In this document: positions 3,058 to 13,188 of the stretch, in pieces
Numbering within the stretch: position 1 is the stretch's first letter
Layout of the letters: every line of letters begins with the position of its first letter
Assembly: GCA_964534375.1 (NCBI GenBank)
Contig: CAZHPN010000137.1
Span: forward strand, 1-17,054
Length of the DNA stretch: 17,054 nt
From: an uncultured bacterium
Lineage (GTDB): Bacteria > Lernaellota > Lernaellaia > Lernaellales > Lernaellaceae
Reading direction: 5' to 3'
Position numbers and translations under genes: made by a program
Notes under the pieces: generated by a model
Seen by the model: the letters and a program-made list of their open reading frames with translations, nothing else
What the model was told of the DNA's origin: nothing
Databases searched by the model: none

Positions 3058-3768
3058 ATGAAAGACAAAAACGCCAGTATCAACTATGCCATTTTCAAAA
3101 ACACCGAGGCCGAAATTCAGGCTCTTGCCCGCGCGAATCCGGTTACGCTCGTGGCATTTTCGGGCGGCAAAGACAGCTTGGTTCTGCTCGACCTCTGCTC
3201 GAAGGCGTTTCAAAAAGTCGTGTGTTTTTTCATGTATCTCGTGCCAAACCTCGCCGTCGCCGAAAAGCAGCTTGACTATGCACGCGACCGCTACGGCGTC
3301 GAAATTCTGCAATATCCGCATTGGGCGACCATCAAAAGCCTGAAAAATGGGGTCTATTGCAACGTTCATCCCTCGTGGGATGCAGTCAAAGAACAGACCG
3401 TCAACGACGTGCATGAATGGGTCAAGGCCGACACGGGCATCCCGATCATCGCGCACGGCGCCAAGAAAAGCGACAGCCTTTGGCGGCGGCGCTACATGGC
3501 CGCGCGGAAAAACAAGAAAGACGGCGCTTACTACCCCCTGGCCGACTGGAACAAATACGAAGTGCTGGCGTACCTGGGGCTGAACAACATCCCGCTGCCG
3601 GAAACGTCGAGCGGCGGCAAAAAGGCGGCGTCGGGCCTGGGCCTGATGACCGAATGCCTTTTGTGGCTGCACGACGAACACCCCGAAGATTTTGCAAAGG
3701 TGCTGACTTGGTATCCCTACGCCGAGGCGGTGGTGTACCGGAGAGATTGGTATGGAATCAAATACTGA
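3058..3768 (+). CDS. PAPS-reductase-like PP-loop (adenine nucleotide alpha-hydrolase) protein, mobile-element type
   Basis: PP-loop 'VAFSGGKDS', 'HGAKKSDSLWRR' and 'YPLADWNKYEVLAY'. Lacks the CysH C-terminal ECGLH and the CC...CxxC cluster motif. Confidence 0.85.
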   Translation: MKDKNASINYAIFKNTEAEIQALARANPVTLVAFSGGKDSLVLLDLCSKAFQKVVCFFMYLVPNLAVAEKQLDYARDRYGVEILQYPHWATIKSLKNGVYCNVHPSWDAVKEQTVNDVHEWVKADTGIPIIAHGAKKSDSLWRRRYMAARKNKKDGAYYPLADWNKYEVLAYLGLNNIPLPETSSGGKKAASGLGLMTECLLWLHDEHPEDFAKVLTWYPYAEAVVYRRDWYGIKY

Positions 3769-4646
3769 ATTGGGCGCGGCCGACGAGCAGACCGGCGAAC
3801 AAGGCGGCGAGAAGTCGGGGCGTAAGGGGGCGCAGGGAAAGGCCGGGATGCGTCGCGGCGCCGCAAGCGGCCGAACGAAGGCGCGGCCACGGCGCGGCAA
3901 GGGGCCGAAGGTTACACCGGGCGGGCTAAACCCGTTCGAGAAGTTTGAAGTCGTCGAAATTCACCGAAGTTTGATTAAGAACGCGCCCTATAACCCGCGT
4001 CAGATCACCGACGACGCCCGCGAGCGGTTGGGAAACAATATCGAAAAAGTGGGCCTGTTGACGCCGCTCGTTTGGAATGCGGAAACGGGCAACCTCGTTT
4101 TGGGGTCATCAGCGCCTTGAACGCCTCGACGCCAAGACCGGCACGCAGGATTACACCCTGCACGTCGCGCGGGTCCATCTCGATCCCGCGACCGAAAAAG
4201 CGCAGAACATTTTTTTCAACAATGCCAACGCGCAGGGCTATTTCGACATGGCCGCGCTCGAAACGATGTTCAAAGAGGAAAAAATCGACTTCGAGGCCGC
4301 GGGCTTCGACCTGGGGGAAGTCTATAAAGAGTTCGGCGAATCGCCGCTCGTGGAACAACCCGAACAGATGCTTGAGTTGTCGAAGCGAATCCGCGAGGCC
4401 GACGACCGCCAGAAACTAATCCGCGAAACCGTGAAAACGCGCGACGATGCCGATTTTTACCTCGTCGTCGTTTTCCCCGGCCACGATGAGCGCGAAAAGT
4501 TCACCGACGCGCTCGACCTCGACGACAACCGCTATATCGACGGCAAGAGTCTGCTCGCCAAATTGCTTGCGGCCCAGGCCGCGGCCGGCGCGATCTCGAC
4601 CACGACGGCGACCGCGACCGCGGCGGCGGCGGAAATGACAGTTTAG
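3752..4646 (+). pseudogene. ParB/Srx N-terminal-domain protein split by a single-base frameshift (sequencing error or true lesion)
   Basis: The first frame gives 'IKNAPYNPRQI...L..NIEKVGLLTPLVWNAETGNLV' and the +1 frame continues 'GHQRL...'. Deleting one base from TTTTGGGG (4098-4105) restores the ParB motif GNLVxGHQRL and a single ~297-aa ORF. Confidence 0.85.
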
Positions 4647-8394: not shown

Positions 8395-8730
8395 TCACGT
8401 TCCTTTTTTGCCGCCCCGCTTCTGGGGCTTCGTTTGCGGGGCGTGGCGCGCAAACAGCGCCAACCCTTTTTTCGTCAACTGGTAGCCGCCCGCCCCGGCC
8501 TGTACGCTGGCCGGCAGCGCGGTAAAGCAATCGGGCCACGCAGACGGCCAAACTTGGCCGGTGCATGACCCGACGACGACTTCGCCATTTTCGCGGCGAA
8601 TCACGACGTCACAAGAGCCTTCCGCGCCGGCCGGCAGCACCGTTTTCCAAAGCTGGTCGGTCGGCACGCCGACGAGACGCCATCGCTCGATGCCTAGCTC
8701 GTCGTTCGCCGACAGCATGGTTGCGTTCAT
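8395..8730 (-). CDS. Hypothetical protein (111 aa)
   Basis: RBS GAAAAGAGGACAA-ATG of the type shared across the operon. Starts 16 nt after the DUF488 stop. Confidence 0.65.
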   Translation of the reverse strand: MNATMLSANDELGIERWRLVGVPTDQLWKTVLPAGAEGSCDVVIRRENGEVVVGSCTGQVWPSAWPDCFTALPASVQAGAGGYQLTKKGLALFARHAPQTKPQKRGGKKGT

Positions 8731-8746
8731 TTGTCCTCTTTTCCGG

Positions 8747-9232
8747 TTAGAACAAGTTTCCCTGACGCGGCCGGCGCGCGGGCTTCTCGACCTTCACTTT
8801 TTCCCCTCCCCCGACCCGCAAATGCTCGACAGTGACCGGGATTGTTATTTTCGTTCCCCATAGCTCGAACTCGACAGGCTCGCAGCCGGCCGCAATCCAT
8901 TCCGCGTAAAACTTCCGATGACAGGCGGCGGGGTCGCTCTCGGCGCACATCAAGACGATGTTGCCGCCGTCGAGAACATGCGCGCGGATTTCTTCGAGCG
9001 CGTCGATTACCTCGCCCTGGTCGGTCCACCCGAACCCGCCAAGCTGCGGGAAATGGGCGTAGCGCTCGCCGAGCAGATTTTCGAGATTGCGTTTGTTGCA
9101 ACTCGGATTATGCCTCGATCCCGGCCGCGAGCGAACGTCAACAAGCTCCCGGTCGCCAATCGCGGCGATCAGCTCGGCGGCGGGCGTCAGGCCGTGGCCG
9201 ATCGTGTAGATGGTAAAAGGCTTTCCATTCAT
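8747..9232 (-). CDS. DUF488 family protein (161 aa, start revised to ATG at 9232)
   Basis: 'IYTIGH', 'LVDVRSRPGSR', 'Y.H.PQLGG' and 'LMCAESDPAACHR' are DUF488 motifs. RBS GAAAGGA lies upstream of 9232. Confidence 0.85.
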   Translation of the reverse strand: MNGKPFTIYTIGHGLTPAAELIAAIGDRELVDVRSRPGSRHNPSCNKRNLENLLGERYAHFPQLGGFGWTDQGEVIDALEEIRAHVLDGGNIVLMCAESDPAACHRKFYAEWIAAGCEPVEFELWGTKITIPVTVEHLRVGGGEKVKVEKPARRPRQGNLF

Positions 9233-9258
9233 TTGTCCGTTCCTTTCTCGTATAGCTT

Positions 9259-9327
9259 GCCTCATCAGTGCGTCGGGAACCACCCAGGCGCAGACGGCGA
9301 CACGCTTGCGCGTGCCGTCGTTTCGGC
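9259..9327 (-). ncRNA. Hammerhead ribozyme, type II permutation
   Basis: Minus strand reads GCC-GAAA-CGACGGCACGC-GCAA-GCGUGUCGCCG-UC^UGCG-CCUGGGUGGUUCCCGA-CGCA-CUGAUGA-GGC. This gives the full core (CUGAUGA, GAAA, GUC triplet), stem II GCC/GGC, stem III with a GNRA loop and stem I UGCG/CGCA. Predicted cut between 9293 and 9292. Confidence 0.9.
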
Positions 9328-9357
9328 GGGAAAGGACGGGGGAACGTGGCGGGAGAG

Positions 9358-10377
9358 CTACATCTTGAGCGCGAAGATTTGCCGCTGATTTTCGGGTTTT
9401 TTCTCGCTGGCTTTGACGATCTTGAGCGCGGCGATCTCGCGGCCCATCGCCGCTAAGTCGCGTTCGTCTTGCTCGACACACTCGACCAATTCGGCATTTT
9501 TCGCGCGCAGATCACTGAGGCACGCCGCGACCAATTCAAAGCCCTTCGTCATTTCGGCCTGCAACCCGGCGACCATTGTTTCGACGGCCTTGCCATACTC
9601 GATGAGCTTTTGTTTGCAATGTTCGTCAACAGCGTCGAGCAGATCGTCGGCGGGAGTGCGCGCGGGGGCCGTCAAAAATTCCTTCACGGCCGCGGCGCTC
9701 ATGTCGTCCTCGATGGTCGCCGGCGCGGGCGCGGCCTTCGGCTTGAATTCATAAACGGTCGCGCCGGCCTCATTGTCGTCGTCGGTGGTCGGTTCGGTCG
9801 TCGTCATGGCGATCGGCGCCGCCTCGACAATCGCCGCCCGGTTGAGCGGCAAATTGCGCGGGTCGCTGATCGGCCAGGGCGTGCCGTCCGCGTCGAAACT
9901 GATTTTTTCCAGTTCACGAATCGCGGTCATCGCCAGATTCGACCATGTGCAACCGTCGTCGGATTTTGGGACCGTGATTTCGTGGGCCTCTTTCTTTCGG
10001 TCCCACAAGATCCCGTATTTCGCGGCGACGAACTCTTGAGCGGTCAACTCGTTTTCCGCGGTGAAAGACCGATGCACGTTGATAAAATCCGCGCCCATGA
10101 ACCGCTGTCCATCATACGGATAGGCTTCATAGTCCATCGAGTCGGTCATTCCGTCGAATGTCGTGCGGGTGAACGCATTCGTAACCTGTTCGACCAGCGC
10201 GCTCGCCGGCCCATCGGTGTAGCCGATGCTCACCGAGCAGCCGCCGCTATACTTGCTGGTCGTGACCGAAAATTTGCAGTCGGGGAAAAAATGCTTCAAC
10301 GCGAGCCGGATTTTTTTCGCGGTTTGCGTAGCATCCTCGAACGCCCATTCTTGCCGTCCTTTGTCCTGTTCGTTCAT
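9358..10377 (-). CDS. LPD29 (large polyvalent protein-associated domain 29) protein with C-terminal coiled coil (339 aa, start revised to 10377)
   Basis: 'TAKKIRLALKHFFPDCKFSV....YSGGCSVSIGYTDGP....V......F....FDGMTD' matches LPD29 as I recall it. RBS GAAAAGAGGC precedes ATG 10377. Confidence 0.8.
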   Translation of the reverse strand: MNEQDKGRQEWAFEDATQTAKKIRLALKHFFPDCKFSVTTSKYSGGCSVSIGYTDGPASALVEQVTNAFTRTTFDGMTDSMDYEAYPYDGQRFMGADFINVHRSFTAENELTAQEFVAAKYGILWDRKKEAHEITVPKSDDGCTWSNLAMTAIRELEKISFDADGTPWPISDPRNLPLNRAAIVEAAPIAMTTTEPTTDDDNEAGATVYEFKPKAAPAPATIEDDMSAAAVKEFLTAPARTPADDLLDAVDEHCKQKLIEYGKAVETMVAGLQAEMTKGFELVAACLSDLRAKNAELVECVEQDERDLAAMGREIAALKIVKASEKKPENQRQIFALKM

Positions 10378-10409
10378 CTCGTGCCTCTTTTCTTCGGGCA
10401 GTAATCGCC

Positions 10410-10447
10410 CGACCCAGGCCCGCGCCGCGGGACGTGAGCTAGGGTCG
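10410..10447 (-). repeat. Intergenic hairpin motif, copy C (diverged, covarying)
   Basis: CGACCC-UAG-CUCACGU-CCCGCG-GCGCGGG-CCU-GGGUCG, followed by the CGGGC/GCCCG hairpin and the RBS. Confidence 0.7.
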
Positions 10448-10451
10448 TCGA

Positions 10452-10871
10452 TCACACGACGAACCGTTTTTTTTCGACCATGCGAAGGGTGATTTTCTGT
10501 TGCGGCTTGCCGGCCGGCGTTTCAACGTGGCTGTCGATGACCCACGCAAGATTGTCCCAATAAACGCCGCCGATTTCTTCGACCAGCTTCGCGGGGTGCA
10601 GGTGGTATGGCCGCCGCGCCGGCTTGACCAGTTGGACGGTATAGGTGTCGTCGGCCGCCAAAAAAACGGTGACGTAGCCCTTGAACAACCGGCCGGTCAC
10701 TTTGAAACGCAGACCGCCACGCATCAGCACGCCGTCGCGCTTTTCCTCGGGCATTGCCGCGAATTCGTGCGCGCCCCAGGAACCCAGGGTCGCATTGCCG
10801 CCGACCGCGAGAATTTGCTGCTTAATCGTGTTGGCGATCTCGACCGCTCGTTGCGCCTGTTCGTTATCCAT
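10452..10871 (-). CDS. Hypothetical phage-type protein (139 aa, start revised to 10871)
   Basis: RBS AAAAAGAGGCGAAA-ATG. 'IANTIKQQI...WGA...GLRFKV....KGYVTVFL..DDTYTV...GVYWDNL...ID' resembles a widespread uncharacterised phage family. Confidence 0.75.
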   Translation of the reverse strand: MDNEQAQRAVEIANTIKQQILAVGGNATLGSWGAHEFAAMPEEKRDGVLMRGGLRFKVTGRLFKGYVTVFLAADDTYTVQLVKPARRPYHLHPAKLVEEIGGVYWDNLAWVIDSHVETPAGKPQQKITLRMVEKKRFVV

Positions 10872-10907
10872 TTTCGCCTCTTTTTGTTGGAGCATTGGAG
10901 TAATGCC

Positions 10908-10941
10908 CGCCAGGAACGCGCCGCGGGGCGTGTTCTAGGCG
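10908..10941 (-). repeat. Intergenic hairpin motif, copy B
   Basis: CGCC-UAG-AACACGC-CCCGCG-GCGCGUU-CCU-GGCG. Shares the flanks CGCGTAGTGCGCGCCTAGA and CCTGGCGGGCAT with copy A. Confidence 0.8.
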
Positions 10942-10945
10942 CGCA

Positions 10946-11323
10946 CTACGCGCTCTCGACCGGCGACGCCTCGACTTTTTCCTCGTGCAACGACGCCGCG
11001 CACTCGCTCATCACATGGGCGAACCGCTGCTCGGCGGTAAGGCCGCTCAGGTCAAGCGGCTTCTCGCCGAACACCGGCCGCGGGGCTTTCGGCTGTTCGG
11101 GTTCGCCAAACATGCTCGCGGTTTTTTCTTCGGTGTCGGTGTCGGGGCGTGCATCGGGCGGGACGACGGCGGCGAGCCGCGCAACGTCCACGTCGAAAAG
11201 CGGGCGCGCTTTCTGGCCGAAAATGTCGGCCTGTCGCGCATCGGTTTTCCTCGATCTCGCGCCGACGACAACGGCCTCGTCGCCCGCGAATAGGTCGCGC
11301 CGGGTTGTCACTGTTCTTTTCAT
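10946..11323 (-). CDS. Hypothetical, probably disordered protein (125 aa) with repeated hydrophobic-Phe motifs
   Basis: RBS AAGAGGCGAAA-ATG. The stop sits directly before motif copy B. Confidence 0.7.
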   Translation of the reverse strand: MKRTVTTRRDLFAGDEAVVVGARSRKTDARQADIFGQKARPLFDVDVARLAAVVPPDARPDTDTEEKTASMFGEPEQPKAPRPVFGEKPLDLSGLTAEQRFAHVMSECAASLHEEKVEASPVESA

Positions 11324-11342
11324 TTTCGCCTCTTGTCCTGTT

Positions 11343-11409
11343 TTGAGCGGTCAAAATCGACGCTCAAGAAAAGGCCCGAAGCACCGCGCTTCGGGCCTGA
11401 TCTTGAACG
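11343..11409 (-). terminator. Terminator-like hairpin with alternative pairings (possible attenuator or processing site)
   Basis: AGGCCCGAAGC-GCGGU-GCUUCGGGCCU-UUUCUU. The outer arms CGUUCAAGA/UCUUGAGCG extend the stem, and UUGAGCG can instead pair with downstream CGCUCAA. Confidence 0.65.
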
Positions 11410-11422
11410 GGCGGCGAGCCGC

Positions 11423-12109
11423 CTAAAACGGCACTTCGTCGTCGGTCCCTGTGCTTTGGCCGGAGTCTTGCTCTTGCGGTTGCTCTGGTGCTTGCTCTTG
11501 GCGCGCTTTTTCGCTTTCCTCGTAGTTGGCCAATTCAAGCGCAAGCTGTTCCCGCGACTCCATTTCGGCAATTCGCTCCGGTGCTCGCAAAAACGGAAGG
11601 TAATGCGTAAGGCACCCGTGAATCTCACCAAGGGCCAAACCGCCGTTAATTCGCTGGTGTTGCTCAAGGCAAATTTTCATCGCAATGAGCAATTTTTGGT
11701 CAAACGGAAGCGCGCCGATTTCCTCGCTGCTCACGTCGTAACCGTTTTCGCCGCCGACCTCGCGCAACACGTCGTTGACGGTGTTGTGCGCTTCGACGGT
11801 TTCACAATGTTCGCCCGCCGGGTCGCCGCCGTGGTAGTTTTCCCGAAAATACAGTTCGACGAACAGCATGAAGTCCCACGACCGGACTATTATCATCGGA
11901 TGGTACTCAAGATAATCAAATCCGTTGAAGTAATAGCCGTGGAACCGCGGCCCCTTTTTGCGAGGATAATAACCGGCCTCCAAGTCAGGCACGAACGCCG
12001 GTTTCTCTTTTTTCGCTTTTTTCGGTTTGCTTTCTTCGACCGGCTTTTCCTTCGGTTTCGCCTTTTGGCTGGCAACCTTGCCGGCCTTTTTGTCCTGTTC
12101 TGTGTTCAT
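11423..12109 (-). CDS. Hypothetical protein (228 aa) with Lys-rich N-terminus and SSB-like acidic tail (DDEVPF)
   Basis: RBS GAGGCAAAA-ATG. Bounded by motif copy A and the 11343-11409 hairpin. Confidence 0.75.
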   Translation of the reverse strand: MNTEQDKKAGKVASQKAKPKEKPVEESKPKKAKKEKPAFVPDLEAGYYPRKKGPRFHGYYFNGFDYLEYHPMIIVRSWDFMLFVELYFRENYHGGDPAGEHCETVEAHNTVNDVLREVGGENGYDVSSEEIGALPFDQKLLIAMKICLEQHQRINGGLALGEIHGCLTHYLPFLRAPERIAEMESREQLALELANYEESEKARQEQAPEQPQEQDSGQSTGTDDEVPF

Positions 12110-12137
12110 TTTTGCCTCGCTTTTCGGGCGATATGCC

Positions 12138-12169
12138 CGCCAGGACCGCGCTTTTGCGTGGTCTAGGCG
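12138..12169 (-). repeat. Intergenic hairpin motif, copy A
   Basis: CGCC-UAG-ACCACGC-AAAA-GCGCGGU-CCU-GGCG, followed by the CGGGC-AUAUC-GCCCG hairpin and the RBS. Confidence 0.8.
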
Positions 12170-12173
12170 CGCA

Positions 12174-12488
12174 CTACGCGCCGGCGCTTTCGCTTTTGGG
12201 TTCGTTGAGGGAGTATTGGGGCCAATCGGCCGGGGTGCTCAAATCGCCATGAATCCACGGCTTGTTACAACCGCATTCGCTAATTTCGCAGTATTCCGCG
12301 CCCTGATTTTGCCGAAGCTCGACGCTTTGCGTTTGGCGCAGTTCGGTCGCTTGCCGGCGCGACAACTCGTAAACATTTATCGCCACATCGACCGCATCGC
12401 GTCGGCTTTCTAATGCTTGGCAAAAGTCAGGCAAACAGCCGTGCGAACCGCCCATAATAATCCAGTGTGTTTTCGCCGCCTTGTTCAT
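12174..12488 (-). CDS. Hypothetical protein (104 aa), Cys/His-containing, first gene of the leftward operon
   Basis: RBS AAAAGAGGCGAAAA-ATG. Contains 'HGCLPD' and 'CEISECGC..PWIH'. Confidence 0.75.
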   Translation of the reverse strand: MNKAAKTHWIIMGGSHGCLPDFCQALESRRDAVDVAINVYELSRRQATELRQTQSVELRQNQGAEYCEISECGCNKPWIHGDLSTPADWPQYSLNEPKSESAGA

Positions 12489-12814
12489 TTTTCGCCTCTT
12501 TTGTTAGGATTTTGGCCTAAAACGCACGGAAACCATGCGTTTTAGGCCGGAATCCCGAATGGAATCCGGTCTAGGCAGAAAATGAACAGGACATTACCGA
12601 GAATCCAAAATTTCTCGGTCGCCCGCGCGTACACGGTTTCTTCGCTCTGCTGCTGAACAGCAGGCTAACGCCAAGTCGTCGCGGGTTAAGTTATTCTATT
12701 GTCAATGGGGACGGGGCGTTAACATGCTCTTGCGCGGGTGGCCTTTTTTCCTCACTGGTTAAGAATCCTATGTTCGGCCTTGCCCCTTTCGCATCCTACG
12801 GGGCAACACGCGCG

Positions 12815-13073
12815 AAGTGTTGAAAATCTCAACACTTCTTTTAAGGCTGACATTAACAACGCCCTGGCTTGTCATCTTGCTATGGACTCCCCAGGACTTG
12901 AGCAAGCCTTAAGGGTCTTGCCCTCGCCTTACTGCTTGGAAAAGAACTAACTGAACATGCGTATTATAACGTAGCTGTTAGATAATGCAAGCATTATTTT
13001 CGGTTTTTTCGTTACATTTTGTAACGTTTGTCGTTAAAGAATAGCGGCCTAAGTGTTTAGTTTTACAACACTT
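12815..13073. promoter_or_regulatory. Pair of palindromic sites AAGTGTT-N9-AACACTT (12815-12837 and 13051-13073) bracketing the promoter
   Basis: Identical 7-bp arms and identical 9-nt spacing with different spacer sequences. Confidence 0.55.
12963..12990 (-). promoter_or_regulatory. Sigma70-type promoter for the leftward operon
   Basis: Minus strand TTGCAT (12990-12985)-N16-TATAAT (12968-12963) with an A-rich upstream tract. The palindrome ATAATGC-AA-GCATTAT (12982-12997) overlaps the -35 box. Confidence 0.7.
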
Positions 13074-13076
13074 TAT

Positions 13077-13188
13077 GCGCTACCAGGGCGACCAGGGCGC
13101 TACCAGGACGGCAGGGCGCTACCAGGACGGGGCAGGGCGCTACCAGGACGGCAGGGCGCTACCAGGACGGCAGGGCGCCACCAGGACG
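13077..13188. repeat. Tandem array of about 6 copies of a 19-bp unit GCGCTACCAGGACGGCAGG
   Basis: Units start at 13077 (degenerate), 13097, 13116 (+GG), 13137, 13156 and 13175 (partial), with no spacers. Confidence 0.95.

Follow-up and report, generated by a model that had tools for sequence, protein, structure and literature searches.

Structured RNA elements at five of the six gene junctions in a putative mobile-element operon of an uncultured Lernaellota bacterium

Contig CAZHPN010000137.1 of GenBank assembly GCA_964534375.1, a metagenome-assembled genome (MAG) of an uncultured Lernaellota bacterium, carries on its minus strand, from position 12990 to 8395, seven genes (g1 to g7) that are separated at five of their six junctions by structured RNA elements: three copies of a long imperfect hairpin (M1-M3), one hairpin resembling an intrinsic terminator and one candidate type II hammerhead ribozyme (Table 1). 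The window analyzed here is this complete contig of 17,054 nucleotides (nt), denoted C137, one of the 381 contigs of the 6.3-Mb genome. A first-pass annotation had described the region as an early-type operon whose transcript might be cut into separately controlled units. Its order of genes and elements is borne out, all on the one strand, and the operon is supported as one coherent foreign module with RNA structures at its junctions, while the statement that nearly every junction carries such an element holds for five of six and fails at g6/g7, where the 16-nt spacer is without structure (fold z = -1.01). The best explanation, to which we give even weight, is a single-promoter accessory operon of a mobile element whose junction elements act on the mRNA. 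Segmentation of the transcript is plausible; from these structures we infer the cleavage events, the enzyme and the consequences for expression.

In the arrangement that we favor transcription would start about 470 nt upstream of g1, and the fold of the leader would sequester the ribosome-binding site (RBS) and AUG of g1. The terminator-like hairpin after g2 may stop part of the transcripts, and M1-M3, each of which begins at a stop codon (that of g1, g3 and g4, respectively), would serve as RNase III-type processing sites and/or as hairpins that protect 3' ends. The hammerhead would cut itself after C 9293, giving a separate DUF488-g7 message whose Shine-Dalgarno sequence lies within ribozyme stem II. 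The net effect would be the conversion of one transcript into several units, each with independent stability and translation. We regard it as an even call that at least two of the junctions are processed in vivo.

The first-pass annotation had distinguished three repeated motifs, A, B and C; they are indeed repeated, but as three copies of one element rather than as separate motifs. Each hairpin is 48-55 nt long. Its outer stem of 7 pairs ends at a 1x1 or 1x2 loop; further in, a stem of 4-6 pairs, an internal loop (UA/CU) and 4 more pairs lead to an A-C mismatch, beyond which 3-4 pairs carry the tetraloop. In all three copies the upstream gene's stop codon is located in the 5' arm. Bases flanking M3 pair with the AUG region of g5. 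The pattern CCTAG-N(16-24)-CCTGG occurs three times in the window as opposed to an expectation of 0.07, and none of 200 shuffles reaches three. Pairing in M1-M3 is kept through compensatory substitutions and a compensated insertion: each arm of the middle stem of M3 is longer by two bases (CGACCC/GGGUCG vs CGCC/GGCG, a 2-bp insertion), its outer stem is re-paired (GUGAUCG/CGAUUAC vs GUAGUGC/GCAUUAC), and both-sided changes are found by RNAalifold in 2 of the 20 pairs of the three copies. The UA/CU internal loop and the A-C mismatch are retained in every copy. In favor of a role in RNA, none of the three sense strands folds less stably than its antisense counterpart, and for M3 the difference is clear.

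With about 19-21 pairs and small 1x1, 2x2 and 1x1 (or 1x2) loops, corresponding to approximately two helical turns, M1-M3 place at three junctions an intercistronic hairpin with internal loops of the kind that is found in several copies per operon as the T7-early-type RNase III signal. An RNase III is encoded in the MAG (contig C167, 134.6 bits). That this enzyme class cuts M1-M3 is a tentative proposal, to which we assign somewhat less than an even chance. The early RNase III sites of phage T7 resemble one another. Processing of the T7 early transcript at RNase III signals is documented (PMC4858673), and the T7 sites are like those considered here in being several related, irregular hairpins of about two turns between genes of an early-type polycistronic operon, with host RNA polymerase. 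There is no sequence relation between the two sets, however, the stop codon lies inside the stem only in ours, and hairpin cleavage is putative here; furthermore, the present element is not a T7-like phage, its genes pointing instead to conjugative elements.

The hammerhead candidate occupies the junction between g5, which encodes an LPD29 domain, and g6, which encodes DUF488, where the first-pass annotation had placed a hammerhead, probably rightly. Its core is complete: CGAAAC at 9325-9320 provides the GAAA strand with the A15.1-U16.1 pair, CUGAUGA is found at 9268-9262, stem I spans 9292-9269 and a GUC ends at 9293, such that every upper-case core position of the consensus is matched and cleavage is predicted after C 9293. 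The topology is that of type II, stems I and III being closed by loops and stem II open, and the element is intergenic and in the sense orientation. Stem III comprises 12 pairs with 1 mismatch and a GCAA loop, and stem II, of 3 pairs, is extended by a distal 10-bp helix (9339-9330 with 9247-9237) that covers the g6 Shine-Dalgarno sequence, for which an unpaired probability of 0.10 is predicted; stems I, III and the distal stem II helix are all present in the minimum free energy fold. The match to Hammerhead_II (RF02276) has E = 0.0057 in a 5.2-kb search and 0.0016 in the 6.3-Mb genome, in which the next best match reaches 20.8 bits, 8.6 bits lower. Most of the score is lost through a 9-nt insertion in stem III and irregularities of stem I. 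No other known ribozyme was found on the junctions at Rfam E <= 5. The hammerhead is rather more probably active than inactive.

Precedents for such a placement are available. Hammerheads flanking individual genes, among them the anti-restriction gene ardA, have been described in operons of prophages and mobile elements (Perreault et al. 2011, PMC3088659), and long hammerhead transcripts are reported there to cut both in vitro and in E. coli. The clustered hammerheads of that report share with ours a type II core, the sense orientation and a position between two small accessory genes of a mobile-element operon. Ours differs from the clustered cases as they are presented there in being a single, sub-cut-off hammerhead with an unusually long stem III (12 pairs, GCAA), in having a distal stem II helix over the Shine-Dalgarno sequence of the next gene, and in that the other junctions of the operon carry a different element.

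The g2/g3 junction is of a third kind. A small hairpin at the stop codon (11423-11410) is followed by a 9+11-bp hairpin (11409-11361) that has a G+C-rich upper stem, a loop of 3 and then a U-rich tract, as in an intrinsic terminator, and the site ranks as the top terminator-like site of the region in the terminator scan. A terminator-like switch had been proposed at this point; the terminator-like character stands, but the switch is not supported, as the alternative pairing of the 3' arm loses to the terminator hairpin in full context.

Several findings weigh against cleavage at these junctions. The Hammerhead_II match of 29.4 bits lies under the Rfam gathering cut-off of 37, and at gathering scores Rfam finds nothing anywhere in the window. 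Pairing between UGGU of loop I (within 9283-9278) and GCUA of the tail (within 9258-9252) would amount to just 2 Watson-Crick and 2 G-U pairs, at the place where the Rfam consensus has a pseudoknot that typically comprises at least 4 pairs; according to PMC3088659 the loop I/3'-tail pseudoknot occurs in the majority of type II members, not in all, and is important for fast cleavage. The 141-nt hammerhead junction is no more stable than shuffles (z -0.35). As to the hairpins, the antisense strands of M1 and M2 fold almost as well as the sense strands (sense/antisense -39.7/-39.4 kcal/mol for M1 and -33.9/-32.3 kcal/mol for M2; -33.1/-25.8 kcal/mol for M3), the 5' arms of M1 and M2 are identical at 25 of 26 bases and, because no related operon was found, the covariation rests on three possibly recent duplicates. 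C137 is a compositional outlier in its MAG, so that the RNase III of the MAG may differ from that of the true host. Ribozymes were found in none of 6 viral loci with g4 homologues, which yielded just a tRNA, and on a phage contig (L187, 3400-5600) the g4 homologue belongs to an operon of small genes, preceded by a tRNA gene, in which stop and start codons overlap and junction elements are absent. Finally, a sequencing-run search for the stretch returned 4 DNA runs that contain it, all wetland metagenomes, and no RNA run is listed among them.

It may be, then, that there is no segmentation at all, the hammerhead being an inactive look-alike or relic, the hairpins pausing or attenuating polymerase or protecting 3' ends, and the operon giving one or two plain transcripts. 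The low score, weak pseudoknot and unremarkable stability of the hammerhead junction would all fit, as would the plain terminator-like site at one junction and the outcome of a control in which sub-threshold Hammerhead_II matches with E <= 1 were found in 6 of 14 well-known genomes. Against this possibility, which we consider quite unlikely, are the completeness of the core, the correct topology, the sense and intergenic placement and the wide gap to the next match in the genome, together with the lack of a U-tract in M1-M3.

The M hairpins could alternatively be translation gates rather than cleavage sites, such that translation of one gene licenses the next with no cutting of RNA. With the upstream stop codon in the 5' arm, a terminating ribosome would melt the hairpin and the pairings over the next start. 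If the bases that a ribosome at the upstream stop codon would cover are forced to be single-stranded, the probability that the AUG is unpaired is predicted to increase, for g5 from 0.07 to 0.56 and for g4 from 0.37 to 0.68; moreover, the stop codon is within the stem in each of the three copies, and the g1 AUG is almost fully paired (unpaired probability 0.01) by a 16-nt segment of the leader. The accessibility of the g2 AUG, which follows M1, barely moves, however (0.59 to 0.69), the Shine-Dalgarno sequences of g2-g5 are roughly half accessible to begin with, spacers of 67-77 nt are long for termination-reinitiation and the conserved internal loops would have no role. On balance gating by itself is unlikely as the function of M1-M3.

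A composite can also be envisaged in which the junction elements form a relay driven by both ribosomes and cleavage, with M gating g4 and g5 and representing an uncatalogued processing module that is interchangeable with the hammerhead and swapped by recombination. Since stem II of the hammerhead doubles as an anti-Shine-Dalgarno for DUF488, folding of the ribozyme and initiation of translation would exclude each other in such a relay. We view this combination as improbable.

In addition to their possible roles in RNA, the repeats had been suggested in the first-pass annotation to promote cassette-like gene shuffling. In favor of this, the repeated junction unit takes in the final codons of a gene, the hairpin, the RBS and the opening codons of the gene that follows (families D8, D9, D11, D12, D13 and D20), which is what cassette-type recombination would leave behind. 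It is then conceivable that M1-M3 are mainly DNA-level linkers, that is, stop-to-start cassettes and homology patches for shuffling in the manner of PeSLs, with the hairpin an attenuator or incidental; the shared N-termini of several gene products agree with such a picture. The PeSL cassettes of T4-type phages, as described in PMC2839356 and PMC4122927, combine a strong promoter, terminator activity and a stem-loop with a Shine-Dalgarno sequence next to orphan genes, and are proposed there to be sites of modular shuffling. A stem-loop plus Shine-Dalgarno sequence in a repeated junction unit is common to both. Unlike PeSLs as so described, M1-M3 have no U-tract and, in a promoter scan of 12118-12186, 10900-10949 and 10401-10455, no hexamers resembling those of a sigma-70 promoter. 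Homology patches alone, furthermore, do not need compensatory changes and a compensated insertion, and our scans of species genomes and metagenomes produced no relatives that show gain or loss at the boundaries. A purely DNA-level role is thus in our estimation a slim prospect.

A different possibility is that M1-M3 bind an RNA- or hairpin-DNA-binding protein encoded by the element, for autoregulation or for action on the transferred single strand. The UA/CU and A-C loops are invariant while the stems change, and four of the operon proteins have no assigned function. Searches of the family libraries, however, detected no RNA- or DNA-binding domain in any operon protein, the invariance of the loops in three copies may reflect recent common origin, and the transcribed-sense strand of M3 folds clearly better than the other strand. 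We therefore think a protein-binding role very improbable indeed.

Two further identities for the M hairpins were considered and rejected. Integron attC sites are disfavored by the absence of an integrase domain among the 18 contig proteins (Pfam) and by M arm ends that lack the attC core consensus; the contig covers only 17 kb. As for a solitary CRISPR repeat or RNA anti-CRISPR, M1-M3 are unlike the array repeats of the MAG (C92, C233/C208) and gave no CRISPR-DR match.

In order to place the junction elements in a wider setting several collections were searched. M1-M3 belong to no Rfam family, even with lax filters, and a blastn-short comparison of all junction elements with their own genome gave no further copies. 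The exact M-core pattern, which has 18 specified bases and is escaped by diverged copies, matched once in viral contigs, in a coding region that is not a hairpin, and at 60 loci in species-genome contigs, none of which has the extended hairpin. In metagenome contigs 107 loci were reported and 109 matches scored, and only three of these are real (L103, L104 and L114); these represent the operon itself, with identities of 100% and 99.5%, and two of the contigs come from a sister sample. Apart from these sister-sample copies, the viral, species-genome and metagenome collections scanned with the exact pattern contain no related operon. A covariance model, R1, was built from the three M copies and used to search their own genome and 4 plasmid loci: in the genome it recovered only the source copies themselves, an antisense image and a single further match (22.9 bits, E 0.27), and in the plasmid loci nothing beyond chance (E >= 0.4). 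A ribozyme search of 4 plasmid loci containing homologues of LPD29 or g4 gave no match, and the LPD29 protein is found only in its own genome among 60 relatives and 17 genomes of the phylum. Over 1,608 compared bases, the sister-sample copy L114 departs from the window at just 8 positions, which cluster within 181 bases (10150-10330) and make this interval a local patch of variation; all 8 fall in LPD29 coding sequence, leaving M3 and the hammerhead unchanged.

LPD29 had been introduced in the first-pass annotation as a polyvalent-protein domain of phage and plasmid conflict. This is correct insofar as g5 carries a solo domain of a family found in conjugative elements; the phage side is small, with 5 of 50,697 phage records containing LPD29 as compared to 345 of 72,556 plasmid records, 195 of them typed conjugative. 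Solo LPD domains are treated as likely early-invasion or anti-defense factors, as a prediction, in PMC5512222 and a 2026 preprint. In three plasmids selected from the 345, LPD29 keeps company with genes of transfer and establishment. In one it lies beside SLT and traM genes in an F-type transfer region with no oriT annotated there. In another it has an ArdC-like gene on one side and ssb/parAB/korA-like genes on the other, and the third has two copies, placed on either side of a KorA-like gene that adjoins the gene of a 1,495-amino acid (aa) protein with a zincin-like metallopeptidase domain. A homologue of g4 adjoins the coupling protein of a Bacteroidales conjugative transposon, and the g4 family is represented at 6 loci in viral contigs. 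Going by these homologues, conjugative plasmids and transposons appear to be the usual setting of the LPD29 gene and of the g4 family. Among small genes upstream of LPD29 on a Serratia IncI1/MOBF plasmid, near the transfer region, a solitary CRISPR-DR4 repeat (L182:2126-2153) scores 37 bits with a cut-off of 35 and looks like an RNA anti-CRISPR candidate.

Compared with the leading regions of conjugative plasmids as portrayed in PMC11541004 and PMC5512222, the 17,054-base contig is different in that profile searches of its proteins revealed no relaxase or type IV secretion system gene and no oriT is present; no Frpo-type single-strand promoter was recognized by eye, and the neighbors are defense-type genes. 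Overall, the sequences are new but the design is familiar from the early operons of phages. What is particular here is the LPD29/DUF488 gene content of conjugative type, the combination of three junction types within an operon of seven genes and the placement of a Shine-Dalgarno sequence within ribozyme stem II. If the cuts are real, conjugative-type elements would, like lytic phages, use RNA signals to punctuate the accessory genes that they express first, and a self-cleaving ribozyme and a protein-dependent hairpin could fill equivalent slots. The settings of type II hammerheads would then extend to an LPD29/DUF488 operon, and seven genes with three kinds of junction would offer a compact test bed for mRNA processing that sets the doses of establishment and counter-defense genes, as well as for how junction repeats aid gene shuffling.

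Table 1. Features of the operon in transcription order. All coordinates are window positions; z compares fold stability with that of shuffled sequences.
Feature	Coordinates	Strand	Description and evidence
Promoter-like site	12963..12990	-	-35 TTGCAT 12990-12985, 16-nt spacer, perfect -10 TATAAT 12968-12963
Leader	12489..12962	-	~470 nt, highly structured, no family match; folding, Rfam search
g1	12174..12488	-	104 aa, Cys-rich, no family; open reading frame (ORF), profile searches; GC1/2/3 = 0.56/0.47/0.62
M1	12118..12186	-	Imperfect hairpin, core 12177-12130; z -3.55; R1 68.1 bits; g1 stop 12176-12174 in 5' arm
g2	11423..12109	-	228 aa, Lys-rich N-terminal part, acidic C-terminal tail, no family; ORF, profile searches
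g2/g3 junction	11361..11423	-	Intrinsic-terminator-like; 12 pairs, 8 G-C, T-rich tail; z -4.73
g3	10946..11323	-	125 aa, low complexity, no family; ORF, profile searches
M2	10900..10949	-	50-nt imperfect hairpin; z -2.67; R1 78.8 bits; g3 stop 10948-10946 paired in outer stem
g4	10452..10871	-	139 aa, unnamed family of ~100-125-aa proteins; homologue search
M3	10401..10455	-	55-nt imperfect hairpin; z -3.54; R1 58.8 bits; g4 stop 10454-10452 in outer stem
g5	9358..10377	-	339 aa, N-terminal LPD29, long C-terminal part without family; PF18847
Type II hammerhead candidate	9237..9339	-	Rfam Hammerhead_II match 9328-9251, 29.4 bits
g6	8747..9232	-	161 aa, DUF488; PF04343
g7	8395..8730	-	111 aa, no family, 16 nt after g6; ORF, profile searches

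The promoter-like site was not listed by the automated promoter scan because its -35 hexamer matches at only 3 of 6 positions. Downstream of it the leader (12960-12480, 481 nt) folds with z = -7.71, none of 100 shuffles folding equally well, and its end (12600-12480) with z = -7.46. The segment complementary to the g1 RBS and AUG (12497-12482) is the 16-nt anti-RBS segment at 12588-12573, and a 16-bp hairpin is located in the 3' part of the leader at 12555-12507. Rfam returned just chance matches of miRNA-precursor type for the leader, and the leader contains no convincing ORF. A 30-codon ORF starting with GTG (12634-12542, minus strand) encodes a hydrophobic peptide, crosses the anti-RBS segment and has its stop codon within the 5' arm of the 16-bp hairpin; as it is without the stereotyped RBS it may be a leader peptide or a chance occurrence. 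An Frpo-type single-strand promoter was rejected for the leader by eye alone, no paired copy of the promoter hexamers being seen. Four palindromes surround the promoter (13073-13051, 12837-12815, 13026-13010 and 12997-12982). Two of them have the same half-sites around a 9-nt center, one about 60 nt upstream of the -35 hexamer and one about 130 nt into the leader; of the others, one is just upstream of the -35 hexamer and one overlaps it. The promoter looks heavily regulated, but no candidate regulator was identified. Between the promoter and the end of a type IIG restriction-modification gene, 5.7 copies of a 19-20-nt direct repeat (13077-13188, TRF score 176) could be iterons or an operator array.

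All seven operon ORFs display the coding pattern GC1 > GC2 < GC3. The LPD29 match of g5 (PF18847, residues 15-105) scores 76.1 bits with a cut-off of 27 (3.5e-21), and g5 also matches phrog_15549; the DUF488 match of g6 (PF04343, residues 27-113) scores 53.8 bits with a cut-off of 22.2 (3.9e-14), and g6 in addition matches the candidate defense family PADLOC PDC-M45B (1.9e-12). No match to Pfam or NCBIfam was obtained for g1, g2, g3, g4 and g7, nor for g1, g2, g3 and g7 in any library searched, including PHROG and PADLOC. The anti-defense role that had been proposed for the operon genes is putative, and the DUF488 protein matches candidate defense families instead. The stereotyped RBS and shared N-termini noted in the first pass are confirmed: AAGAGGC precedes the start codons of g1, g3, g4 and g5, with close variants in g2 and g7, and is absent from the 9 other window genes compared, and the N-termini read MNTEQDK (g2), MDNEQ (g4) and MNEQDK (g5).

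The g4 family comprises 212 cluster representatives at E <= 0.001, and g4 itself weakly matches phrog_9437 (1.2e-4). Its predicted structure has a pLDDT of 90.7 and no Foldseek match in PDB at E <= 0.001; in a wide structural comparison the best Z was 6.0 (1ylx_B), with 5.3 for PsiB (3nct_A) and 5.1 for AcrIIA11, all within the background range, so that no fold is assigned. A word-based search with g4 returned only the self-match, g1 and g2 gave no match to plasmids, an atlas search with g2 gave no usable match and the DUF488 protein matched no PDB sequences. The C-terminus of g2 has an acidic stretch followed by DDEVPF, with no OB-fold or other family detected. This tail resembles the protein-docking C-terminal tip of bacterial SSB.

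The GC content of C137, 0.565, is the lowest among the 206 contigs of the MAG above 10 kb (mean 0.642, standard deviation 0.016), and its tetranucleotide distance is the largest among those above 12 kb (rank 1 of 180). As a compositional outlier it is either a recently acquired foreign element or a mis-binned contig. The operon has as neighbors defense-type genes: the type IIG restriction-modification gene, AbiGi, a HerA-like gene and a BrxP-like PAPS reductase. A ParB-like gene adjoining the last of these is present as two overlapping plus-strand ORFs (3752-4120 and 4077-4646) that match successive parts of phrog_9353 (profile positions 6-62 and 62-236), and may represent a frameshift or a broken gene. 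Elsewhere in the MAG there are CRISPR arrays at C92:1-215, C233:7427-8101 and C208:9722-9894, with repeats of 32 nt and 36 nt.

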